Below, piece after piece: positions 3,041 to 12,509 of a DNA stretch of 64,000 nt (position 1 is its first letter; each line of letters begins with the position of its first letter). The translations under genes were made by a program, and so were the position numbers. Origin of the DNA: an uncultured Candidatus Saccharibacteria bacterium (lineage in GTDB: Bacteria; Patescibacteriota; Minisyncoccia; Phycocordibacterales; DATGWK01); the NCBI GenBank assembly GCA_964428845.1, contig CAYRZH010000002.1, forward strand, positions 6,924-70,923. Direction: 5' to 3'. The notes beneath the pieces are model-generated. The model searched no databases. It was not told the origin of the DNA and saw only the letters and a program-made list of their open reading frames with translations.

Positions 3041-4051
3041 CTACATGACTGATACGTTCTCGTCCGGATGGAATGCCTTCCGCAGTTCAGGCCTCTGATT
3101 CCACATCCGCACCGCCGTTCTCACAAGGTCGCGAATCTGGGGAAGCGTTCCCTGCAGACCGAGGACGTACATATGATGTGAGTCTGGCCGAAGCTGGAAC
3201 GTCACGTAGCTGACGGCGTCTTGGAGCATAACGCGGTCGTAGCCGCACATTTCAGCCGCCAGCACCTTCACCGACCCGAACTGGCCGGACGCTCCGCGAA
3301 ACTTTGCGCCGTCCAGGACTGCCTTCATTCCATTGAAGTAGACTTCATCCTGGAAGGTGATGCACAGCTCGTAGAGCATTCCGCCGATAGTGACGATGTC
3401 GTGATCCTTGTCAATCGCGCCGCGCGTCATGATCGAGGTGTCGAGCCAGAGGTTCTCATAGACATTGGCGCCTGTCTGGAGCTCCTCGAATCCCTGATCT
3501 GGTTCGCCGTAGATCGTAACGTGGACTGCACGATCACGGAATTCGCCGAATCTGGAATCAGGCGCGTCGTCGTTCTTCGTATCTGTGTACCACGCTTCGA
3601 CGGTGACCCAGACGATGTACTTCGTTTCCTTCCACACCGGATCGGAGTGCAGATAACCCGTGCCGTGCGCATTGAGGCGTTTGGACCTCCAGAGCACCCA
3701 CCAGGCATAAATCTCATCGAGACTTCGTTTGCGTTCCGCAGAGTTGCGCGGAAAGTTGAGCTGGTTGAGGATCTCGCCATCGGCGTCGATAGCGAATGCG
3801 TACTCGCCTCGGCGCATGACCTGATCCTTACGGTTGCCTTTGAGATGGAAGATACACGAGGAATCGCCGAGACCAACGTTGTCCGCTCTGCGATACATGA
3901 GATCTCCGTCCGCTTTTTCCACTCTGATGGTCAGATCATCAACCTTGACCCCGCGCTCGCCGTCGAAAGGTTCCATGCGGGACGCGATTATTCTTTCCAC
4001 GAAGGGATATTGCTTAAGCAACTCGCGGTTCTTCGAGGCCGTCGGCTTCAT
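3041..4051 (-). CDS. hypothetical protein (336 aa), GC-rich accessory gene
   Basis: ATG at 4051 preceded by an AGGAGGG RBS; about 58% GC against a ~40% background; no family recognised. Confidence 0.6.
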   Translation of the reverse strand: MKPTASKNRELLKQYPFVERIIASRMEPFDGERGVKVDDLTIRVEKADGDLMYRRADNVGLGDSSCIFHLKGNRKDQVMRRGEYAFAIDADGEILNQLNFPRNSAERKRSLDEIYAWWVLWRSKRLNAHGTGYLHSDPVWKETKYIVWVTVEAWYTDTKNDDAPDSRFGEFRDRAVHVTIYGEPDQGFEELQTGANVYENLWLDTSIMTRGAIDKDHDIVTIGGMLYELCITFQDEVYFNGMKAVLDGAKFRGASGQFGSVKVLAAEMCGYDRVMLQDAVSYVTFQLRPDSHHMYVLGLQGTLPQIRDLVRTAVRMWNQRPELRKAFHPDENVSVM

Positions 4052-4124
4052 TTCGTGCCCTCCTACGTTCCGTAGTTTTCAAATTGTTGGCGTTCCGCCA
4101 ACAGTCGGCCTACATCGGACGACA

Positions 4125-4157
4125 ATATAAAATATAATGATTTCTTCAATCCGTCAA
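4125..4157 (-). promoter_or_regulatory. sigma70-like promoter for gene 3041-4051
   Basis: Minus-sense TTGACG - ~17 nt - TATTTT, about 70 nt upstream of the ATG. Confidence 0.4.
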
Positions 4158-4196
4158 TTCTTTTTGAAGGTTCTTAACCGTACGAAAAAATGGAGA

Positions 4197-4245
4197 GGGA
4201 ATTGGGTTATTTGAAGTTTATTTAGTATAAAAGAAAACCGCCCCC
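4197..4245 (-). repeat. conserved ~50-bp inter-cassette repeat unit, copy A
   Basis: GGGAATTGGGTTATTTGAAGTTTATTTAGTATAAAAGAAAACCGCCCC is about 85% identical to copy B at 4827-4876; its 3' end forms one arm of a terminator hairpin. Confidence 0.6.
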
Positions 4246-4268
4246 AACGGCTTTCCGTTGGGGGCGGG
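4231..4268 (-). terminator. intrinsic terminator for gene 4276-4665
   Basis: CCGCCCCCAACGG ctttc CCGTTGGGGGCGG hairpin followed by TTTTCTTTT on the minus strand. Confidence 0.7.
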
Positions 4269-4275
4269 ACTGATT

Positions 4276-4665
4276 TCAGCTTGCGAGCTGGACCTCGGAC
4301 GCACTGATGATCGGCGCCCAGGCTTCTTCAAGGGTTGGGAAGGCCTTGAGCGCCACTTCCACAAACCCATGAAGATTTCGATACGCGAACTCGACATCGT
4401 TGCTGTAGAGAGGAACCTGCCTCTCGCTCGAATAGACGAGGGTTGCGAACCCTGTCAGCTTCCAGCATTCGACGGCTCTCGAATGCTTCATTACCCTGAA
4501 GGTCCATCTGCACGACTCAGATTCGACCGTGGCTTCGATTCCATCCTTAGAAGAAAAGGGGACCATGCCGAAGGTCATTCTGATGACCTGATCGATCTCC
4601 GACCGCATCCTGTCGATGTTCCGTGAGCCCCGAATCAGACGAGCCGCGGTCTCCGTGCTGTTCAT
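4276..4665 (-). CDS. hypothetical protein (129 aa), GC-rich
   Basis: ATG at 4665 preceded by AAAAGGAG; no family recognised. Confidence 0.55.
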   Translation of the reverse strand: MNSTETAARLIRGSRNIDRMRSEIDQVIRMTFGMVPFSSKDGIEATVESESCRWTFRVMKHSRAVECWKLTGFATLVYSSERQVPLYSNDVEFAYRNLHGFVEVALKAFPTLEEAWAPIISASEVQLAS

Positions 4666-4736
4666 TGCAAACTCCTTTTCTCAAAGGGCCCTCTCGGGCG
4701 GGTGATGAGCATCTCTGCTCGGGAACTAACTTTCCA

Positions 4737-4765
4737 TATATTACACTAAATAACAAAAAAAGTCA
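4737..4765 (-). promoter_or_regulatory. sigma70-like promoter for gene 4276-4665
   Basis: Minus-sense TTGACT - 17 nt - TAATAT. Confidence 0.5.
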
Positions 4766-4826
4766 AGTAATCGTAATGGTTCAATACCTTGGAAAATTTT
4801 AGAACTCTAGATGGGGGAAACGGCTA

Positions 4827-4876
4827 GGGGATTAAGTTATTTGAAATTTAGTTTTGTATAAAAGAAAGACCGCCCC
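4827..4876 (-). repeat. conserved ~50-bp inter-cassette repeat unit, copy B
   Basis: GGGGATTAAGTTATTTGAAATTTAGTTTTGTATAAAAGAAAGACCGCCCC. Confidence 0.6.
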
Positions 4877-4894
4877 GTGCACCAGGGCGGTCTT
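4868..4894 (-). terminator. intrinsic terminator for gene 4908-5315
   Basis: GACCGCCC cgtgcacca GGGCGGTC hairpin followed by a T-run on the minus strand. Confidence 0.7.
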
Positions 4895-4907
4895 GGTTCT
4901 TGTGGAG

Positions 4908-5315
4908 TTAGCTTTTGAGAGAAAGCCACTCCTTCTCCCCGAGTTGTCGTACACGCCCTTCGATGAGCGTCGCAATCATGCTGATCTCTTCCGCGGTTAC
5001 CCACGGTAGACCATCACTTTTGCGTCGACAAACCTGGGATATGTAGAAGCATCGTCGCACGAGCTCCTCCACAAGATCCAGGCGGTCTGATTGTTCGCAA
5101 GAGCCACGCGCCGTGACACTTGCCGCACTTGCGAGGAATCTCTCGACGTAGCCGAGATATTCATCGGGTGCCACGAGGCAGTGGAGAGGGTCAACCTCAT
5201 TCCATGCCTCGTAAACGATCGGACCGATTGGCCCCCATTTCTCCAGAAGTGCAGCCGAGATTCGACTCTCGTACGCACAGCTGAAAGAGGGAAGACCGGG
5301 GTTGTGGCTCGTCAT
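4908..5315 (-). CDS. hypothetical protein (135 aa), GC-rich
   Basis: The internal ATG at 5315 (MTSHNPGL...) is preceded by an AAAGGA RBS; the longer ORF-track start lacks an RBS. Confidence 0.5.
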   Translation of the reverse strand: MTSHNPGLPSFSCAYESRISAALLEKWGPIGPIVYEAWNEVDPLHCLVAPDEYLGYVERFLASAASVTARGSCEQSDRLDLVEELVRRCFYISQVCRRKSDGLPWVTAEEISMIATLIEGRVRQLGEKEWLSLKS

Positions 5316-5510
5316 GGTTTTTCCTTTGTGGTTCGGGGTTTCCGACACAATTAAGAAAAAACCTAACCTAACACTGCATGGCCCCACTTGGGTTCGCCAT
5401 GATGTGCCACAACCTTTCTGGTGTTTACCCTAACATATCGATAGTTTTTTGTCAAATAGTGCTCTGACTCGTGGGCAAGTTCAGAATTCTTAATTGGGTA
5501 AATATAGAAA

Positions 5511-7924: not shown

Positions 7925-8242
7925 CTCCGCGGGTAGGATTCGAACCTACGACCAATCGCTTACATTTGCTCCAAGCTTTCGCTCGGTATGGACTATATCA
8001 TCATCCTTCACCTGGTGGGTGGTTTGGATGTGGGGCGCTTCGTTCTGCTCTTGCAGAACTACTCTCTTGCGAGATAGTCTCTGAACCTTTCCTTTGATAA
8101 TTAATCTGGGGACTTGGCTGCTGATTGCCCACGGCTTTACGTTTGGGTTTCCAGCAATTCACCTCATTTTTCAGCCCGTATTCCTACGGGAAGCTGCGTA
8201 ATTTCGACACAGGCGATCGCTCTACCACTGAGCTACCGCGGA
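7925..8242 (-). tRNA. tRNA-Asn(GUU) interrupted by a group I intron (exons 8242-8209 and 7962-7925)
   Basis: The 5' exon reads TCCGCGG TA GCTC AGTGGTA GAGC G ATCGC CUGU. The 3' exon reads UAA GCGAT TGGTC GTAGG TTCGAAT CCTAC CCGCGGA G. This gives a perfect 7-bp acceptor stem, a CUGUUAA anticodon loop and G73 discriminator (fits Asn); CCA is not encoded. Confidence 0.75.
7963..8208 (-). ncRNA. group I self-splicing intron (246 nt) in the tRNA-Asn anticodon loop
   Basis: The conserved core elements occur in the right order: P AATTGCTGGAAA (8159-8148), Q AATCAGCAGCC (8126-8116), R GTTCAGAGACTATC (8086-8073) and S GATGATATAGTCC (8002-7990). The 5' splice site follows a U, the intron ends in G, and a GCAG guide sequence can pair with exon CUGU (U.G). 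Confidence 0.75.
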
Positions 8243-8310
8243 ATATTATATTTTCTACAAACTTCAAAGAACGCTGAACATCATAGCAAAAACTCCTCTA
8301 TAATAAAAGC

Positions 8311-8544
8311 ATGTACATCAAAATCCGCGCCGTACCATCGGCTAAAAAAGAGCTGTTCGAGCAAGTCTCCAAAGACCACTTTAAGATTACTGTGCGCGAG
8401 AAGCCGAAGAACAACCAGGCCAATCAGCGCATCGTCGCTCTCGTGGCTTCCCACTTCAAGATCGCTTCAGGGAAGGTGAGAATTATTTCAGGCCATCATT
8501 CGCCAAGCAAAATTCTTTCAGTCGATATTGAAACAGTCGGTTAA
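8311..8544 (+). CDS. DUF167 / YggU-family protein
   Basis: MYIKIRAVPSAKKE....ITVREKPKNNQANQRIVALVASHF...GKVRIISG matches the YggU pattern. Confidence 0.65.
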   Translation: MYIKIRAVPSAKKELFEQVSKDHFKITVREKPKNNQANQRIVALVASHFKIASGKVRIISGHHSPSKILSVDIETVG

Positions 8545-8614
8545 ATGTGTCCTATAAATTCCCAAGCACTATCTTTTGCTGATTTTGTAATTTTCTTTAG
8601 ACCAATTTGTTATA

Positions 8615-9037
8615 ATGAAAAAGATTATCAGTAACCATACGAGCATGAAAATAAACATCAAAGCCACAAATATGCATTTGACTCCCGAAATATCAGATTA
8701 TCTAGAAAAGAAGATAAATATGCTCGACAGACTGATCGACCCAGCTGATACAAGCGTTTCCTGCAATATAGAAGTCGGCAAGACAACCAACCACCACAAA
8801 ACAGGAGATGTTTTTAGGACAGAAATAAATTTAACAAAAGATGGCAAATACTTTCGGGCAGTGGCGGAAGAGGAGACACTCAACGCCTCGATTGATGAAG
8901 CGAAAGATGAAATCATGCGAGAGCTTAAGAGCCACAAATCAAAACGCCAGACTCTCATTCGACGTGGTGGTGCGAGAATAAAGGATCTTATAAGGGGTGT
9001 TGGAAATCTGAAGAATTTGAGGCGGTGGAGGAGGTAG
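8615..9037 (+). CDS. hpf: ribosome hibernation promoting factor / RaiA-family protein
   Basis: MKINIKATNMHLTPEISDYLEKKI is a sigma-54 modulation / YfiA family signature; the start may be at 8645. Confidence 0.8.
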   Translation: MKKIISNHTSMKINIKATNMHLTPEISDYLEKKINMLDRLIDPADTSVSCNIEVGKTTNHHKTGDVFRTEINLTKDGKYFRAVAEEETLNASIDEAKDEIMRELKSHKSKRQTLIRRGGARIKDLIRGVGNLKNLRRWRR

Positions 9038-9244
9038 GGGTCTTGAATAGATATCGAAGCAGGACAGTGTCTGTTGTCTGGTTTGGAGATCGATCGAGGA
9101 GAGTCCGCAGGAAGATTTACTCATCCACATCACAGGGTTTTGAATAGACGCCGAGGCGAGACTAGCGAGCGCGACGGCGCGAGCTCGAGGAAAATTTTAG
9201 CAAAAATTTATCCGTGCTCGACGAGGTGTGCTATTCAAAACCCC
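9037..9244. repeat. MITE-like structured repeat, copy 1 (208 bp, terminal inverted repeats GGGGTCTTGAATAG / CTATTCAAAACCCC)
   Basis: It shares three modules with 31199-31496: GAGAGTCCGCAGGAAGATT, GGGGTTTTGAATAGAYGCCGAGGCGRG and TTTATCCGTGCTCGAC..CTATTCAARACCCC. It exactly fills the gap between the convergent hpf and fmt stop codons. Confidence 0.55.
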
Positions 9245-9246
9245 AA

Positions 9247-10101
9247 TCACCTCACTCCCCGCAAGAAATCTTCATAAGACATTTCTTTCTTACCCTCCGG
9301 TATCACTTTAGTTATCTCCAACTTCCCATCCGACATCTCGGCTTCTCGCACCACTACGCGTAGCTTTTTGCCTTTATGATCCGCGAAAAAATATGCGGTC
9401 GGCCAGTCTCTGTACGCGCGGATTTTCTTTAAGTTTTCTTCGGCGTTGCCCAAAAGATCAAGCAACCCATCCTCTTTTTTGATCTTCTTTGTAAATGTGG
9501 CACGAGCGTGGTCCTGCTCCGTTGCTTTTATTTTCCCTTCTACCCAACCTGGAAGTATTTTTACTAGAAGTTTGCCACCTGCTTCTGCAAGAGTGTTTCG
9601 AAGTCGATCTGCGTACGGTGGCCAGTCCGAAATCGCTACTTCCTCCTGCACTACGATGGGCCCGTGATCCACTTTTTCGTCAACGAGCATTATTGTTACC
9701 CCTGTTTTTTCTTCATTTAAAATTGCTGACTGAATAGGTGTGGCGCCGCGAAGCTTGGGGAGAAGGGAAGGGTGAACATTTAAGGTGCCATGCTTGGGAA
9801 TATTTAAAATATTTTTAGGAATAATTTTACCGTACGATGCTACGATAAAAAGGTCGGCCGAGAGCGCTGTAAGTTTTTCAGAAAAATTCTTATCGTTAAG
9901 CTTTTCCGGCTGGAGGCACGCGATAGAGTGCTTTTCTGCCAACATCTTTACCGGAGAGGGAGTGATTACCAATTTTCTTCCTTGTGGTTTGTCTGGAGTT
10001 GTTACAATAAGCGTGGGTAAAAAGCCACCGGCCAGGAGTTTGTCCAAGACGCGACACGAAAACTCCGAACTGCCGAAAAAGACGAAGCCAATTTTACTCA
10101 T
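9247..10101 (-). CDS. fmt: methionyl-tRNA formyltransferase
   Basis: Formyltransferase N-domain motifs (HPSLLPKLRGATPIQSAI) and Fmt C-domain. Confidence 0.85.
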   Translation of the reverse strand: MSKIGFVFFGSSEFSCRVLDKLLAGGFLPTLIVTTPDKPQGRKLVITPSPVKMLAEKHSIACLQPEKLNDKNFSEKLTALSADLFIVASYGKIIPKNILNIPKHGTLNVHPSLLPKLRGATPIQSAILNEEKTGVTIMLVDEKVDHGPIVVQEEVAISDWPPYADRLRNTLAEAGGKLLVKILPGWVEGKIKATEQDHARATFTKKIKKEDGLLDLLGNAEENLKKIRAYRDWPTAYFFADHKGKKLRVVVREAEMSDGKLEITKVIPEGKKEMSYEDFLRGVR

Positions 10102-10606
10102 TTTTTATTGGCGGTATATCTTTTAAGTCCAGTGCTTTGTCGGTAAACAAAACTCCATCAAGATGATCTGTCTCGTGCTGAAATATTTGTGAAAGCAGGC
10201 CTGATGCCCCCATCTTAAATGGTTCGCCAGTCTCACTGTAAGCTTCTATCGTTGCCTGGGTTGAGCGTTTTACCTTGCCGTAGAGATATCTTACGCTCAA
10301 GCATCCCTCTTCCATCCATTCAGTTTTTTTGGAAAGTTTTGTGATCCGAGGGTTTATAAAGACAAGGTCCTCGGATCTTTTTTCTATATTTTTTATAAGG
10401 GAAAGAGTTCGGCCGGATACCACAAAGATACGTAATGCTTCACCTATCTGGGGTGCGGCAATAGCCACACCATCATCCTGCGATTCGAGCGCCTCTTTCA
10501 TCTTGCGGATTATGTTTTGCACTGGGACACTTTTTATCGAGGAAACCGGGACTTCTTGGGCTATTTTCCGCAACGTCGGGTTATCTCTGTCAACAATTTC
10601 TATCAT
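10094..10606 (-). CDS. def: peptide deformylase
   Basis: EGCLSV and HETDHLDG metal-binding motifs. Confidence 0.85.
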   Translation of the reverse strand: MIEIVDRDNPTLRKIAQEVPVSSIKSVPVQNIIRKMKEALESQDDGVAIAAPQIGEALRIFVVSGRTLSLIKNIEKRSEDLVFINPRITKLSKKTEWMEEGCLSVRYLYGKVKRSTQATIEAYSETGEPFKMGASGLLSQIFQHETDHLDGVLFTDKALDLKDIPPIKNE

Positions 10607-10628
10607 TTATTGATTATATCAAATGGTC

Positions 10629-12509
10629 TTAAAGGATGCTCTCGGGATCTATCGAAACATCAAACTGTGGTGGAAGTGAGCGCAACTTCTCTAGAAGCAG
10701 AGGTTCCACCCATCGATCTCTTCCTATTTTTATAAGAGCATGCATCGTATATTTCCCCTTCAGGTGCGGGGTGAATGCGGGGTAAACCTGAACCGAATAA
10801 TCTCCAAAGACGTGTGTAAGGTTTTCCATTTCTTCTTTTACTGCTTCTTCCCGGCCGGAGAGTGAAATTTTTATTAAAACTGTGAACGGTGGGTAGTCGA
10901 AAGCGCGCCTCTCTTCTATTTCTTCTTTGTAAAAATCAATGAGGTTTCCTCCCATAGCAAATCCCCAAATGCGACTCTCTGCGTTTCGTGTCTGTATAAG
11001 GACTTGTTTTTGGGCCAGTGACCTTATTTTCAATAAAATGTATAGCACTTTCTCATTTACTTTGAGATCCGGCATACCGAACATAGAGTCTATCGAAACT
11101 ACTGCTGTATTTGGGACCATCTCATCTATATAGGGCAAAGCCATTTCTGTTCCGAGAAGAACACTGCCGGTTGTTTCCAAGAATTTTTTAGCTTCTGCTG
11201 TGGCCTTGTTGTGAGTTTTTGTATTGTCAGCATCAATTCTGAAAAAATTAATATTCGGGAAGTCTTTCTTGAAATCTTCAGCTACTAACTCGGCACCTAT
11301 ACCAAGTGTTTTGAGTCTCCACCCGCCACAACCGAGACACTTCTGGTCAACGGCTCTTTTCTCACCGCATCTGTGGCAAAAAAGAAATCTCTCTGTCGGG
11401 GAAGAGTGGAGAGTAATAGGAGCCTTACAGCGTCGACATTCGACAACCCTACTACAATCGGCACAGAGGGTGAGAGGGGAGAGACCACGACGACTTGCAA
11501 AAAGAAACAGTCTTTCATTATTCTTTTTGGTGTTTTGGATTAATTCTTCTAATTCGGGAGAAAAAATTTTGAACAAACCGTCTTTCTTTTCTGCTTGGCG
11601 CATGTCTACGAGAGACTGCTTCGCACTTGTTATAGATCTAAATTTGAGCGGCGAGAGTTCTGCAAACTCATCGTGCTTGTATCTCCAAACCGTTTCGACT
11701 CGCAGTAGTGTGTCACCGCAAACCAGTCGCGCCCCGACCGCCCTGGCGAAGTACTCGGCGAAGATGCGCAGGTCGACATGTGGTCTGGTGGGGAGTTTGT
11801 AGAGTCGGGAACCTTCTCTCTCCACGATAATAGTGCCGAGGTCTTTGCGCGGCACAGACAAAAATCCTCCCGTTCCTATTATAAGCACGGGGTGATTTTC
11901 CTTTAGAAGCTTATTCCAAAGCATTACTACATCTTTCTTTTTTAGTTGATTGTGAAAAACAAAAGAGTAAGGACCGATGCCTTTCTCTAGATGAGTTTTT
12001 GCTCGTAGAACATCAGCAGATGTAGGCAAACACAAAAAAACCGAAGAATTCTTGGCAAACTCTTCCCGCACGATGCTCTTGTAGTGGGCAAATCTTTCTT
12101 CGTCGTCTGATTGGATGACAAGTCTGTGGTGTTTGTGCGGAATTTGTTCATTGTCTGGCTCGTCCAGATCCTCGGCGGCCTCAAGGATCTGCTTTGGAAT
12201 AATACTTTTGAGAACACTGCCAGTAGTGCTAGCGAAATATTCTGCGGTTATGCTGGCCGCCTCGATAAATTTGCTGGAAATAAACTTAGAAGAAACAAGT
12301 TTTTCAGCCTTCTTTATTGAAAACGAAAGTGCTTTCAAGTCAGCTTTTTTGTCTGCCAAATCTTCTATGCCGACGACAAGTGCATGCACACTTTTTCCTC
12401 GCAATGGTACTTTCATAATCGACCCGACGCTCGCGTCTGTGGAAGTAAAATATGTAAGAGTCTCTTTGGAAATCCCGCGACTAAAAGGTATGACGCTGAT
12501 TATCTTCAT
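10629..12509 (-). CDS. priA: primosomal protein N' (PriA helicase)
   Basis: DEAD-like helicase motifs plus the PriA Cys-rich zinc module (CADCSRVVECRRC...CHRCGEKRAVDQKCLGCGG). Confidence 0.85.
   Translation of the reverse strand: MKIISVIPFSRGISKETLTYFTSTDASVGSIMKVPLRGKSVHALVVGIEDLADKKADLKALSFSIKKAEKLVSSKFISSKFIEAASITAEYFASTTGSVLKSIIPKQILEAAEDLDEPDNEQIPHKHHRLVIQSDDEERFAHYKSIVREEFAKNSSVFLCLPTSADVLRAKTHLEKGIGPYSFVFHNQLKKKDVVMLWNKLLKENHPVLIIGTGGFLSVPRKDLGTIIVEREGSRLYKLPTRPHVDLRIFAEYFARAVGARLVCGDTLLRVETVWRYKHDEFAELSPLKFRSITSAKQSLVDMRQAEKKDGLFKIFSPELEELIQNTKKNNERLFLFASRRGLSPLTLCADCSRVVECRRCKAPITLHSSPTERFLFCHRCGEKRAVDQKCLGCGGWRLKTLGIGAELVAEDFKKDFPNINFFRIDADNTKTHNKATAEAKKFLETTGSVLLGTEMALPYIDEMVPNTAVVSIDSMFGMPDLKVNEKVLYILLKIRSLAQKQVLIQTRNAESRIWGFAMGGNLIDFYKEEIEERRAFDYPPFTVLIKISLSGREEAVKEEMENLTHVFGDYSVQVYPAFTPHLKGKYTMHALIKIGRDRWVEPLLLEKLRSLPPQFDVSIDPESIL

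Follow-up and report, generated by a model that had tools for sequence, protein, structure and literature searches.

The stretch of DNA that was analyzed, referred to here as the window, is 64,000 nucleotides long. On its minus strand, from 8242 to 7925, it carries a gene for tRNA-Asn(GUU) in which a group I intron of 246 nt interrupts the anticodon between positions 35 and 36 (Table 1). The splice junctions lie at 8209|8208 (5') and 7963|7962 (3'). When the exons are joined, they form a 72-nt cloverleaf with the anticodon loop CUGUUAA, a U1-A72 pair and G73; the CCA end is not encoded. ARAGORN identified the spliced sequence as Asn(gtt) and, with introns allowed, the genomic sequence as Asn gtt i(35,246). 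Both results bear out the original prediction. This had described a tRNA-Asn(GUU) with this loop, a perfect cloverleaf and a 246-nt intron, and had named a tRNA search with the spliced sequence as a check. The minus-strand location of the gene was left unsaid in it. The best match to the spliced tRNA is the annotated tRNA-Asn of E. coli (83-85% over 60 nt in E. coli genomes). A default ARAGORN scan of the window missed the split tRNA-Asn gene and reported tRNA-Glu alone, which is the only other tRNA gene found within the 64 kb. A 121-aa open reading frame on the plus strand (8114..8479) was treated as spurious. It lies antisense over the intron and runs into the DUF167 gene.

Table 1. Exons, intron and ribozyme helices of the split tRNA-Asn gene, in window coordinates
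Feature	Position	Strand	Description
5' exon	8242..8209	minus	34 nt, TCCGCGGTAGCTCAGTGGTAGAGCGATCGCCTGT, ending ...CCUGU; acceptor 5' strand, D arm, anticodon stem 5' strand, loop C32 U33 G34 U35
Intron	8208..7963	minus	246 nt; begins GTCGAAATTACGCAGC, first nucleotide G (8208); ends GGAGCAAATG, ...AAAUG, ωG (7963)
P1	8194..8212	minus	exon CUGU and intron GU (8212..8207) paired with guide ACGCAG (8199..8194)
P2	8175..8190	minus	CCCGUA/UACGGG, GGAA (GNRA) loop; 94.8% paired; 6/6 pairs change on both sides
P3 5' strand	8160..8166	minus	UGAGGUG, pairs with 8037..8031; 97.2% paired; 4/7 pairs change on both sides
P4 and P5/P5a	8119..8156	minus	P4 UGCUGG/UCAGCA (P and Q elements) encloses P5/P5a CCC..ACG/CGU..GGG; P4 100% paired, 4/6 pairs compensatory
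P6/P6a	8090..8112	minus	UCC...GAU/AUC...GGA; shorter and weaker than its counterpart in most relatives
P7 5' strand	8075..8081	minus	G[A]GACUA (R element), pairs with 7995..7990 to give the P3/P7 pseudoknot
P7.1	8074..8063	minus	UCUC-GCAA-GAGA, GCAA loop; 97% paired
P7.2	8059..8042	minus	GUUCUGC-AAGA-GCAGAAC; 85% paired; 7/7 pairs changed on both sides
P3 3' strand	8031..8037	minus	CGCCCCA
P8/P8a	8002..8030	minus	CAUCC...CACC/GGUG...GGAUG; P8 97.7% paired, 4/5 pairs compensatory
P7 3' strand	7990..7995	minus	UAGUCC, inside the S element GAUGAUAUAGUCC
P9	7971..7986	minus	CCGAGC/GCUUGG, GAAA loop, then AGCAAAU and ωG (7963); 5/6 pairs change on both sides; 63.5% paired, stem poorly aligned by MAFFT
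3' exon	7962..7925	minus	38 nt, TAAGCGATTGGTCGTAGGTTCGAATCCTACCCGCGGAG, starting UAAGCGAU; U36 A37 A38, anticodon stem 3' strand, 5-nt variable loop, T arm, acceptor 3' strand, discriminator G73

The neighbours of the tRNA-Asn gene (window 7925..12509) were named by inspection of their translations. They are a DUF167-like gene, a gene for a hibernation-promoting-factor-like protein (HPF), fmt, def and priA. The same order recurs beside intron-containing tRNA-Asn genes in many Patescibacteria metagenome-assembled genomes (MAGs), with 40-57% protein identity. Loci with the conserved order are L067, L047, L045, L065, L108, L022, L117 and L034, and their introns are either short or carry an HNH-like open reading frame. 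Together with the nearest introns, which come from Paceibacterota MAGs, this synteny identifies the window as part of a Patescibacteria (CPR) genome. Judged by these sequence comparisons, the host is Paceibacteria-like.

Upstream of the tRNA on the minus strand (window 8243..8320), no convincing sigma-70-type promoter with normal spacing was found. The sole TATAAT on the tRNA strand is perfect and stops 2 nt short of the mature 5' end, a distance too small for it to act as the promoter of this tRNA. The tRNA shares a 68-nt spacer with the divergent DUF167 gene, and a promoter-like site for DUF167 ends 7 nt before its ATG. Elsewhere in the window, the region 3041..5400 contains long open reading frames that overlap on both strands (336 aa on the minus strand and 284 aa on the plus strand). 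Its G+C content is about 48%, compared with about 44% nearby, and none of its open reading frames has an obvious housekeeping identity. This region may be foreign or mobile DNA.

Structure and conservation of the intron

The Rfam group I model (Intron_gpI, RF00028), which had been proposed as a check, scores 82.1 bits on the locus, where the gathering threshold is 50. The E-value is 2.5e-19 and the full model (1-253) is covered. The core blocks were found on the minus strand in the predicted order, AATTGCTGGAAA (P), AATCAGCAGCC (Q), GTTCAGAGACTATC (R) and GATGATATAGTCC (S), and those of P4 and P7 pair. An anchored group I pattern had no matches in 100 shuffles of the window. A chance resemblance to a group I intron is ruled out by the E-value and by the result with the shuffles. 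The sequence evidence thus confirms that tRNA-Asn(GUU) contains a group I intron at 35/36. The Rfam match extends from 8315 to 7970, which is 107 nt beyond the true 5' end of the intron and 7 nt short of ωG. The overshoot arises because the covariance model places its P1/P2 on the 5' exon and the upstream spacer. When compared with the boundaries from ARAGORN, the coordinates of the covariance model are therefore not those of the intron, and automated annotation from the Rfam match alone would misplace it.

The P1-P9 structure was written manually by homology and inspection and was then checked by covariation. Thermodynamic folding alone (z = -3.2) recovered most of the hairpins. The manual, homology-guided structure was used because thermodynamic folding mispairs P1 and P3 and cannot show the pseudoknot, which is beyond its reach. 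The 5' splice site lies at a U35·G wobble in P1, whose U is the last nucleotide of the 5' exon (8209). The P1 loop of the window intron is 7 nt. A P10 of 3 bp may form between UUA (8201..8199) and UAA of the 3' exon. P3 (7 bp) contains one A·C mismatch. P7 has a bulged A, followed by a G-C pair at the position of the guanosine-binding site. We take these to be the positions of C262-G312, A263 and G264-C311 in Tetrahymena. Between P7 and the 3' strand of P3 are two extra hairpins, P7.1 and P7.2 (8042..8074), which represent an insertion of about 35 nt relative to the Rfam model, after AGACUA. There is no open reading frame of more than 53 aa on the sense strand of the intron and none for a homing endonuclease, in keeping with the compact, endonuclease-free intron that had been predicted.

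Relatives were sought by scanning species-representative genomes for the S element, then for ωG followed by UAA, and then for a T-loop at fixed spacing. The scan gave at least 119 loci, and complete split tRNA-Asn(GUU) genes with the intron at 35/36 were parsed in at least 96 of them. The 98 parsed split genes consist of 96 public loci, the window and L016, which was later dropped as its parsed 5' exon looked spurious. Among the matches listed, G73 is present in 98/98 and U1-A72 in 97/98 parsed genes, and virtually every short member has the guide GCAGC(U/C). All 98 members also end in G, as does the window intron (...AAAUG), but the search pattern required this G. The intron with the closest sequence among the matches listed is L065, which is 77% identical.

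For covariation, the window was aligned with 25 relatives of like architecture. On the explicit P1-P9 map, 87.7% of cells in the 26 sequences pair, compared with 37-46% when the 3' partners are slid by 1-3 columns; the structure was derived from one aligned sequence, which favours the true register in these percentages and affects the counts of double changes less. Changes on both sides were seen in 50 of 69 pairs, and none of 500 shuffles attained the observed values. Compensatory change occurs in every helix but P7, including P7.1/P7.2 and the intron pair adjacent to the splice site. P7 is invariant in 26/26 sequences, and its support is thus by conservation only. In P1, CUGU/GCAG with U35·G is found in all 26 sequences, as would be expected from the predicted guide and the U before the 5' splice site. 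The four exon pairs are invariant, and the next pair, which belongs to the intron, covaries (GC in 11, AU in 5, CG in 3 and GU in 1).

Of the alignment columns, 89 are conserved to at least 90% in the 25 relatives, and the window intron matches every one of them; this copy therefore looks like an intact ribozyme. It could instead be a decayed relic that no longer splices, which would make the locus a tRNA pseudogene and leave the supply of tRNA-Asn to a different gene copy in the genome. Such decay could be read from the A·C mismatch in P3, the short P6, and the lack of an identified promoter and of a homing endonuclease. The mismatch, however, is common to L065 and L069, every helix can be formed, and each exon is a perfect half of a cloverleaf. 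With no departure at any of the conserved columns, a relic is very improbable.

Splicing and relation to known tRNA introns

Introns of this kind have been described before. Williams (2020; bioRxiv 10.1101/2020.01.27.920355) raised the number of bacterial tRNA types known to be interrupted by introns from the classic four to 21 and, as cited in PMC13011429, mapped the Asn 35/36 class computationally as "Asn.4Ug," position 4 being 35/36. In 95 complete Patescibacteria genomes, Nakagawa et al. (mSystems 2026, PMC13011429; preprint July 2025) found 15 tRNA-Asn(GUU) introns at 35/36, and this was the dominant tRNA intron of the phylum. They also noted that standard tools miss or misname these tRNA genes. 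With the class mapped in 2020, these 15 cases, and at least 96 further examples here, the insertion in tRNA-Asn cannot be called unusual, as the original prediction had it. In vitro, the introns of GCA_016700035.1 tRNA-Asn and GCA_001029755.1 tRNA-Asp self-spliced; splicing was precise at 35/36 and GTP-dependent, and changing ωG to C abolished exon ligation (PMC13011429).

The window intron shares with the Asn.4Ug class the tRNA, the anticodon, the site, the phylum, U-1, ωG, the GCAG guide and the core blocks, and like its members it is missed by default tRNA finders. Over aligned positions it is 72-74% identical to published members. It has 73.6% identity to the tRNA-Asn intron of GCA_016700035.1, which was spliced at 35/36 in vitro, and 72.1% to that of the Paceibacteria member GCA_016699245.1 (Table S3, PMC13011429). 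The latter has the same arrangement of P7.1/P7.2 as the window. The spliced intron, from a member of Saccharimonadia, has one long hairpin between P7 and the 3' strand of P3, whereas the window has two. The window intron and its 5' exon were absent from those supplementary sequences of PMC13011429 that were compared. It differs from the class in nothing of kind and is a further member of a published, biochemically validated group that is already known. The additions made here are modest: the two-hairpin variant of P7.1/P7.2, the conserved synteny, and a membership in draft genomes well above the 15 cases reported from complete genomes.

The window gene is very probably a tRNA-Asn(GUU) that is interrupted between U35 and U36 by an IA-like group I ribozyme without an open reading frame, of the Asn.4Ug class of Patescibacteria. 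The A·C mismatch in P3, the unusually short P6 and the lack of a convincing promoter weigh against this reading. Under the proposed model, transcription of the minus strand would yield a precursor of about 320 nt, in which the intron would fold into P1-P9 with the P3/P7 pseudoknot. The guide 5'-ACGCAG would pair with C32-U35 of the exon and the first two bases of the intron, so that the U35·G wobble would fall where cleavage occurs. Free guanosine in the P7 pocket would attack after U35. The guanosine would be replaced by ωG, and the 3'-OH of U35 would attack the 3' splice site. The joining of U35 to U36 would restore the GUU anticodon, and RNase P trimming and CCA addition would complete the tRNA. 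Catalysis by the window copy and all of the downstream processing are inferred.

The same DNA can also be read as tRNA-Thr(UGU) with the intron at 33/34 if both boundaries are moved 2 nt upstream. This ambiguity of register is documented in PMC13011429, and ARAGORN and tFind often annotate the class as Thr. Across relatives of the same architecture the ARAGORN result flips, with Thr(tgt) i(33) given to many of them. Moreover, 69 of the 98 family introns among the matches listed end in GUG, which provides a terminal G in both registers. For the window gene, however, the Thr register is hardly credible. The window intron ends in AAAUG and in that register would end in A, without ωG. The 5' splice site would follow U33, which forms a Watson-Crick pair with A in P1 and not a U·G wobble. 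U1-A72, G73 and the best match to an annotated tRNA-Asn fit Asn and not Thr, and ARAGORN calls the window gene Asn. In addition, the in vitro product of a homolog was sequenced and has the 35/36 junction (PMC13011429). The boundaries of the Asn register are thus the ones adopted here.

The small P6 of the window copy could also indicate that the intron depends for splicing on a protein cofactor, such as a maturase-like or aminoacyl-tRNA-synthetase-type helper, and is not autonomous. Some organelle and phage IA/IB introns need proteins for efficient folding in vivo, which counts in favour of such a dependence. It is nevertheless improbable here. No maturase-like open reading frame was found within or beside the window intron, and the homologous 35/36 introns of tRNA-Asn and of tRNA-Asp were spliced accurately as naked RNA with GTP (PMC13011429).

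The original prediction had set the intron beside the best-known bacterial tRNA introns, a list that reflects the view before 2020. These are the IC3 introns of tRNA-Leu(UAA) at 34/35 (cyanobacterial and plastid), tRNA-fMet at 33/34, Agrobacterium tRNA-Arg(CCU) at 36/37 and Azoarcus tRNA-Ile(CAU). The comparison holds in that these, like the window intron, are compact, self-splicing ribozymes of about 200-250 nt in the anticodon loop, without an open reading frame. They also have the P4/P7 consensus blocks GCCAAG, AGACUA and AUAGUC in common with it. The implied kinship with IC3 does not hold. In IC3 introns P7 leads straight to the 3' strand of P3, whereas the window intron has two extra hairpins there. 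Membership in IC3 is ruled out by P7.1/P7.2 (about 35 nt), the different tRNA and the different insertion site. The published survey placed 25 of 28 introns at 35/36 in subgroup IA and none of the Patescibacteria tRNA introns in IC (PMC13011429). The P7.1/P7.2 architecture and this survey suggest that the window intron is IA-like.

It has also been considered that the intron is retained as an RNA-level valve on the supply of tRNA-Asn, with maturation tied to free guanosine nucleotide and Mg2+. This seems unlikely. If true, it would couple the translation capacity of a reduced, regulator-poor genome to its energy state. A valve presumes that the tRNA-Asn gene is probably single, at a locus in a deeply conserved neighbourhood that is divergent from DUF167/HPF and beside fmt/def/priA. 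The GCAG guide also matches C32-U35 of all tRNAs with GUN anticodons (Asn, Asp, Tyr, and His). Such a fit would account for the recurrence of the 35/36 site in Asn, Asp and Tyr.

For the preferred reading, an Asn.4Ug intron in tRNA-Asn(GUU), the practical consequences concern annotation. When default finders miss the gene, tRNA-Asn would seem to be absent from the genome, whose completeness score would fall. Intron-aware tools can misname the class as Thr(UGU), and exact boundaries mend the annotation.

Other introns at tRNA-Asn 35/36

A second architecture, designated type B, is also present at tRNA-Asn 35/36. Its core reads ...GCCGTAGAGACTAGATACC...AAGATATAGTCC, it is without P7.1/P7.2, and its P3-P6 sequence is different. 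Type B accounts for 18 of the 98 parsed split genes among the matches listed, compared with 72 of the window type. Type B loci include L011, L017, L025, L037, L040, L042, L044, L054, L084, L085, L090, L105, L112 and L119. Since both types are found at one site, tRNA-Asn 35/36 hosts at least two lineages of introns.

Long introns (500-630 nt) are present in 28 of 96 relatives among the matches listed (L012, L020, L034, L036, L038, L039, L055 and about 20 others). Most of these have, in the P1 loop, a sense-strand open reading frame of 100-135 aa that lies after the 5' splice site and before the GCAGCY guide. The CxxC...HH...CxxC motifs of these open reading frames resemble Pfam HNH. When four of them were scanned with the Pfam HNH model, one passed (28.1 bits), two reached 19.1-19.5 bits against a cut-off of 21.4, and one had no match. 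HNH genes in tRNA-Asn introns were reported in 4 cases in complete genomes (PMC13011429), a number that is far exceeded by the 28 of 96 long loci among the matches listed. The HNH-encoding introns have the same core and insertion site as the window intron. They differ in the open reading frame in the P1 loop, which the short loop of the window intron does not contain. Relatives with the HNH open reading frame are likely the mobile forms. The window intron is probably inherited vertically, because it has no homing endonuclease, and the conserved gene neighbourhood fits with this. It is a non-autonomous form.

Split tRNA-Asn(GUU) genes with the intron at 35/36 were also observed in MAGs that are labelled Omnitrophota (L001, L013, L015, L057, and L093), Elusimicrobia (L076 and L078) and Planctomycetales (L035). 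These three groups are outside the phyla given for 35/36 introns in PMC13011429. Nine further loci are labelled "Gammaproteobacteria," and their exons are identical to those of Parcubacteria. These nine labels look unreliable. Finally, four "viral" contigs of IMG/VR (L122, L127, L128, and L136), one of which is 543 kb, carry a split tRNA-Asn(GUU) at 35/36 with an intron of the window type. They may be misfiled CPR genomes or genuine phage-borne copies.
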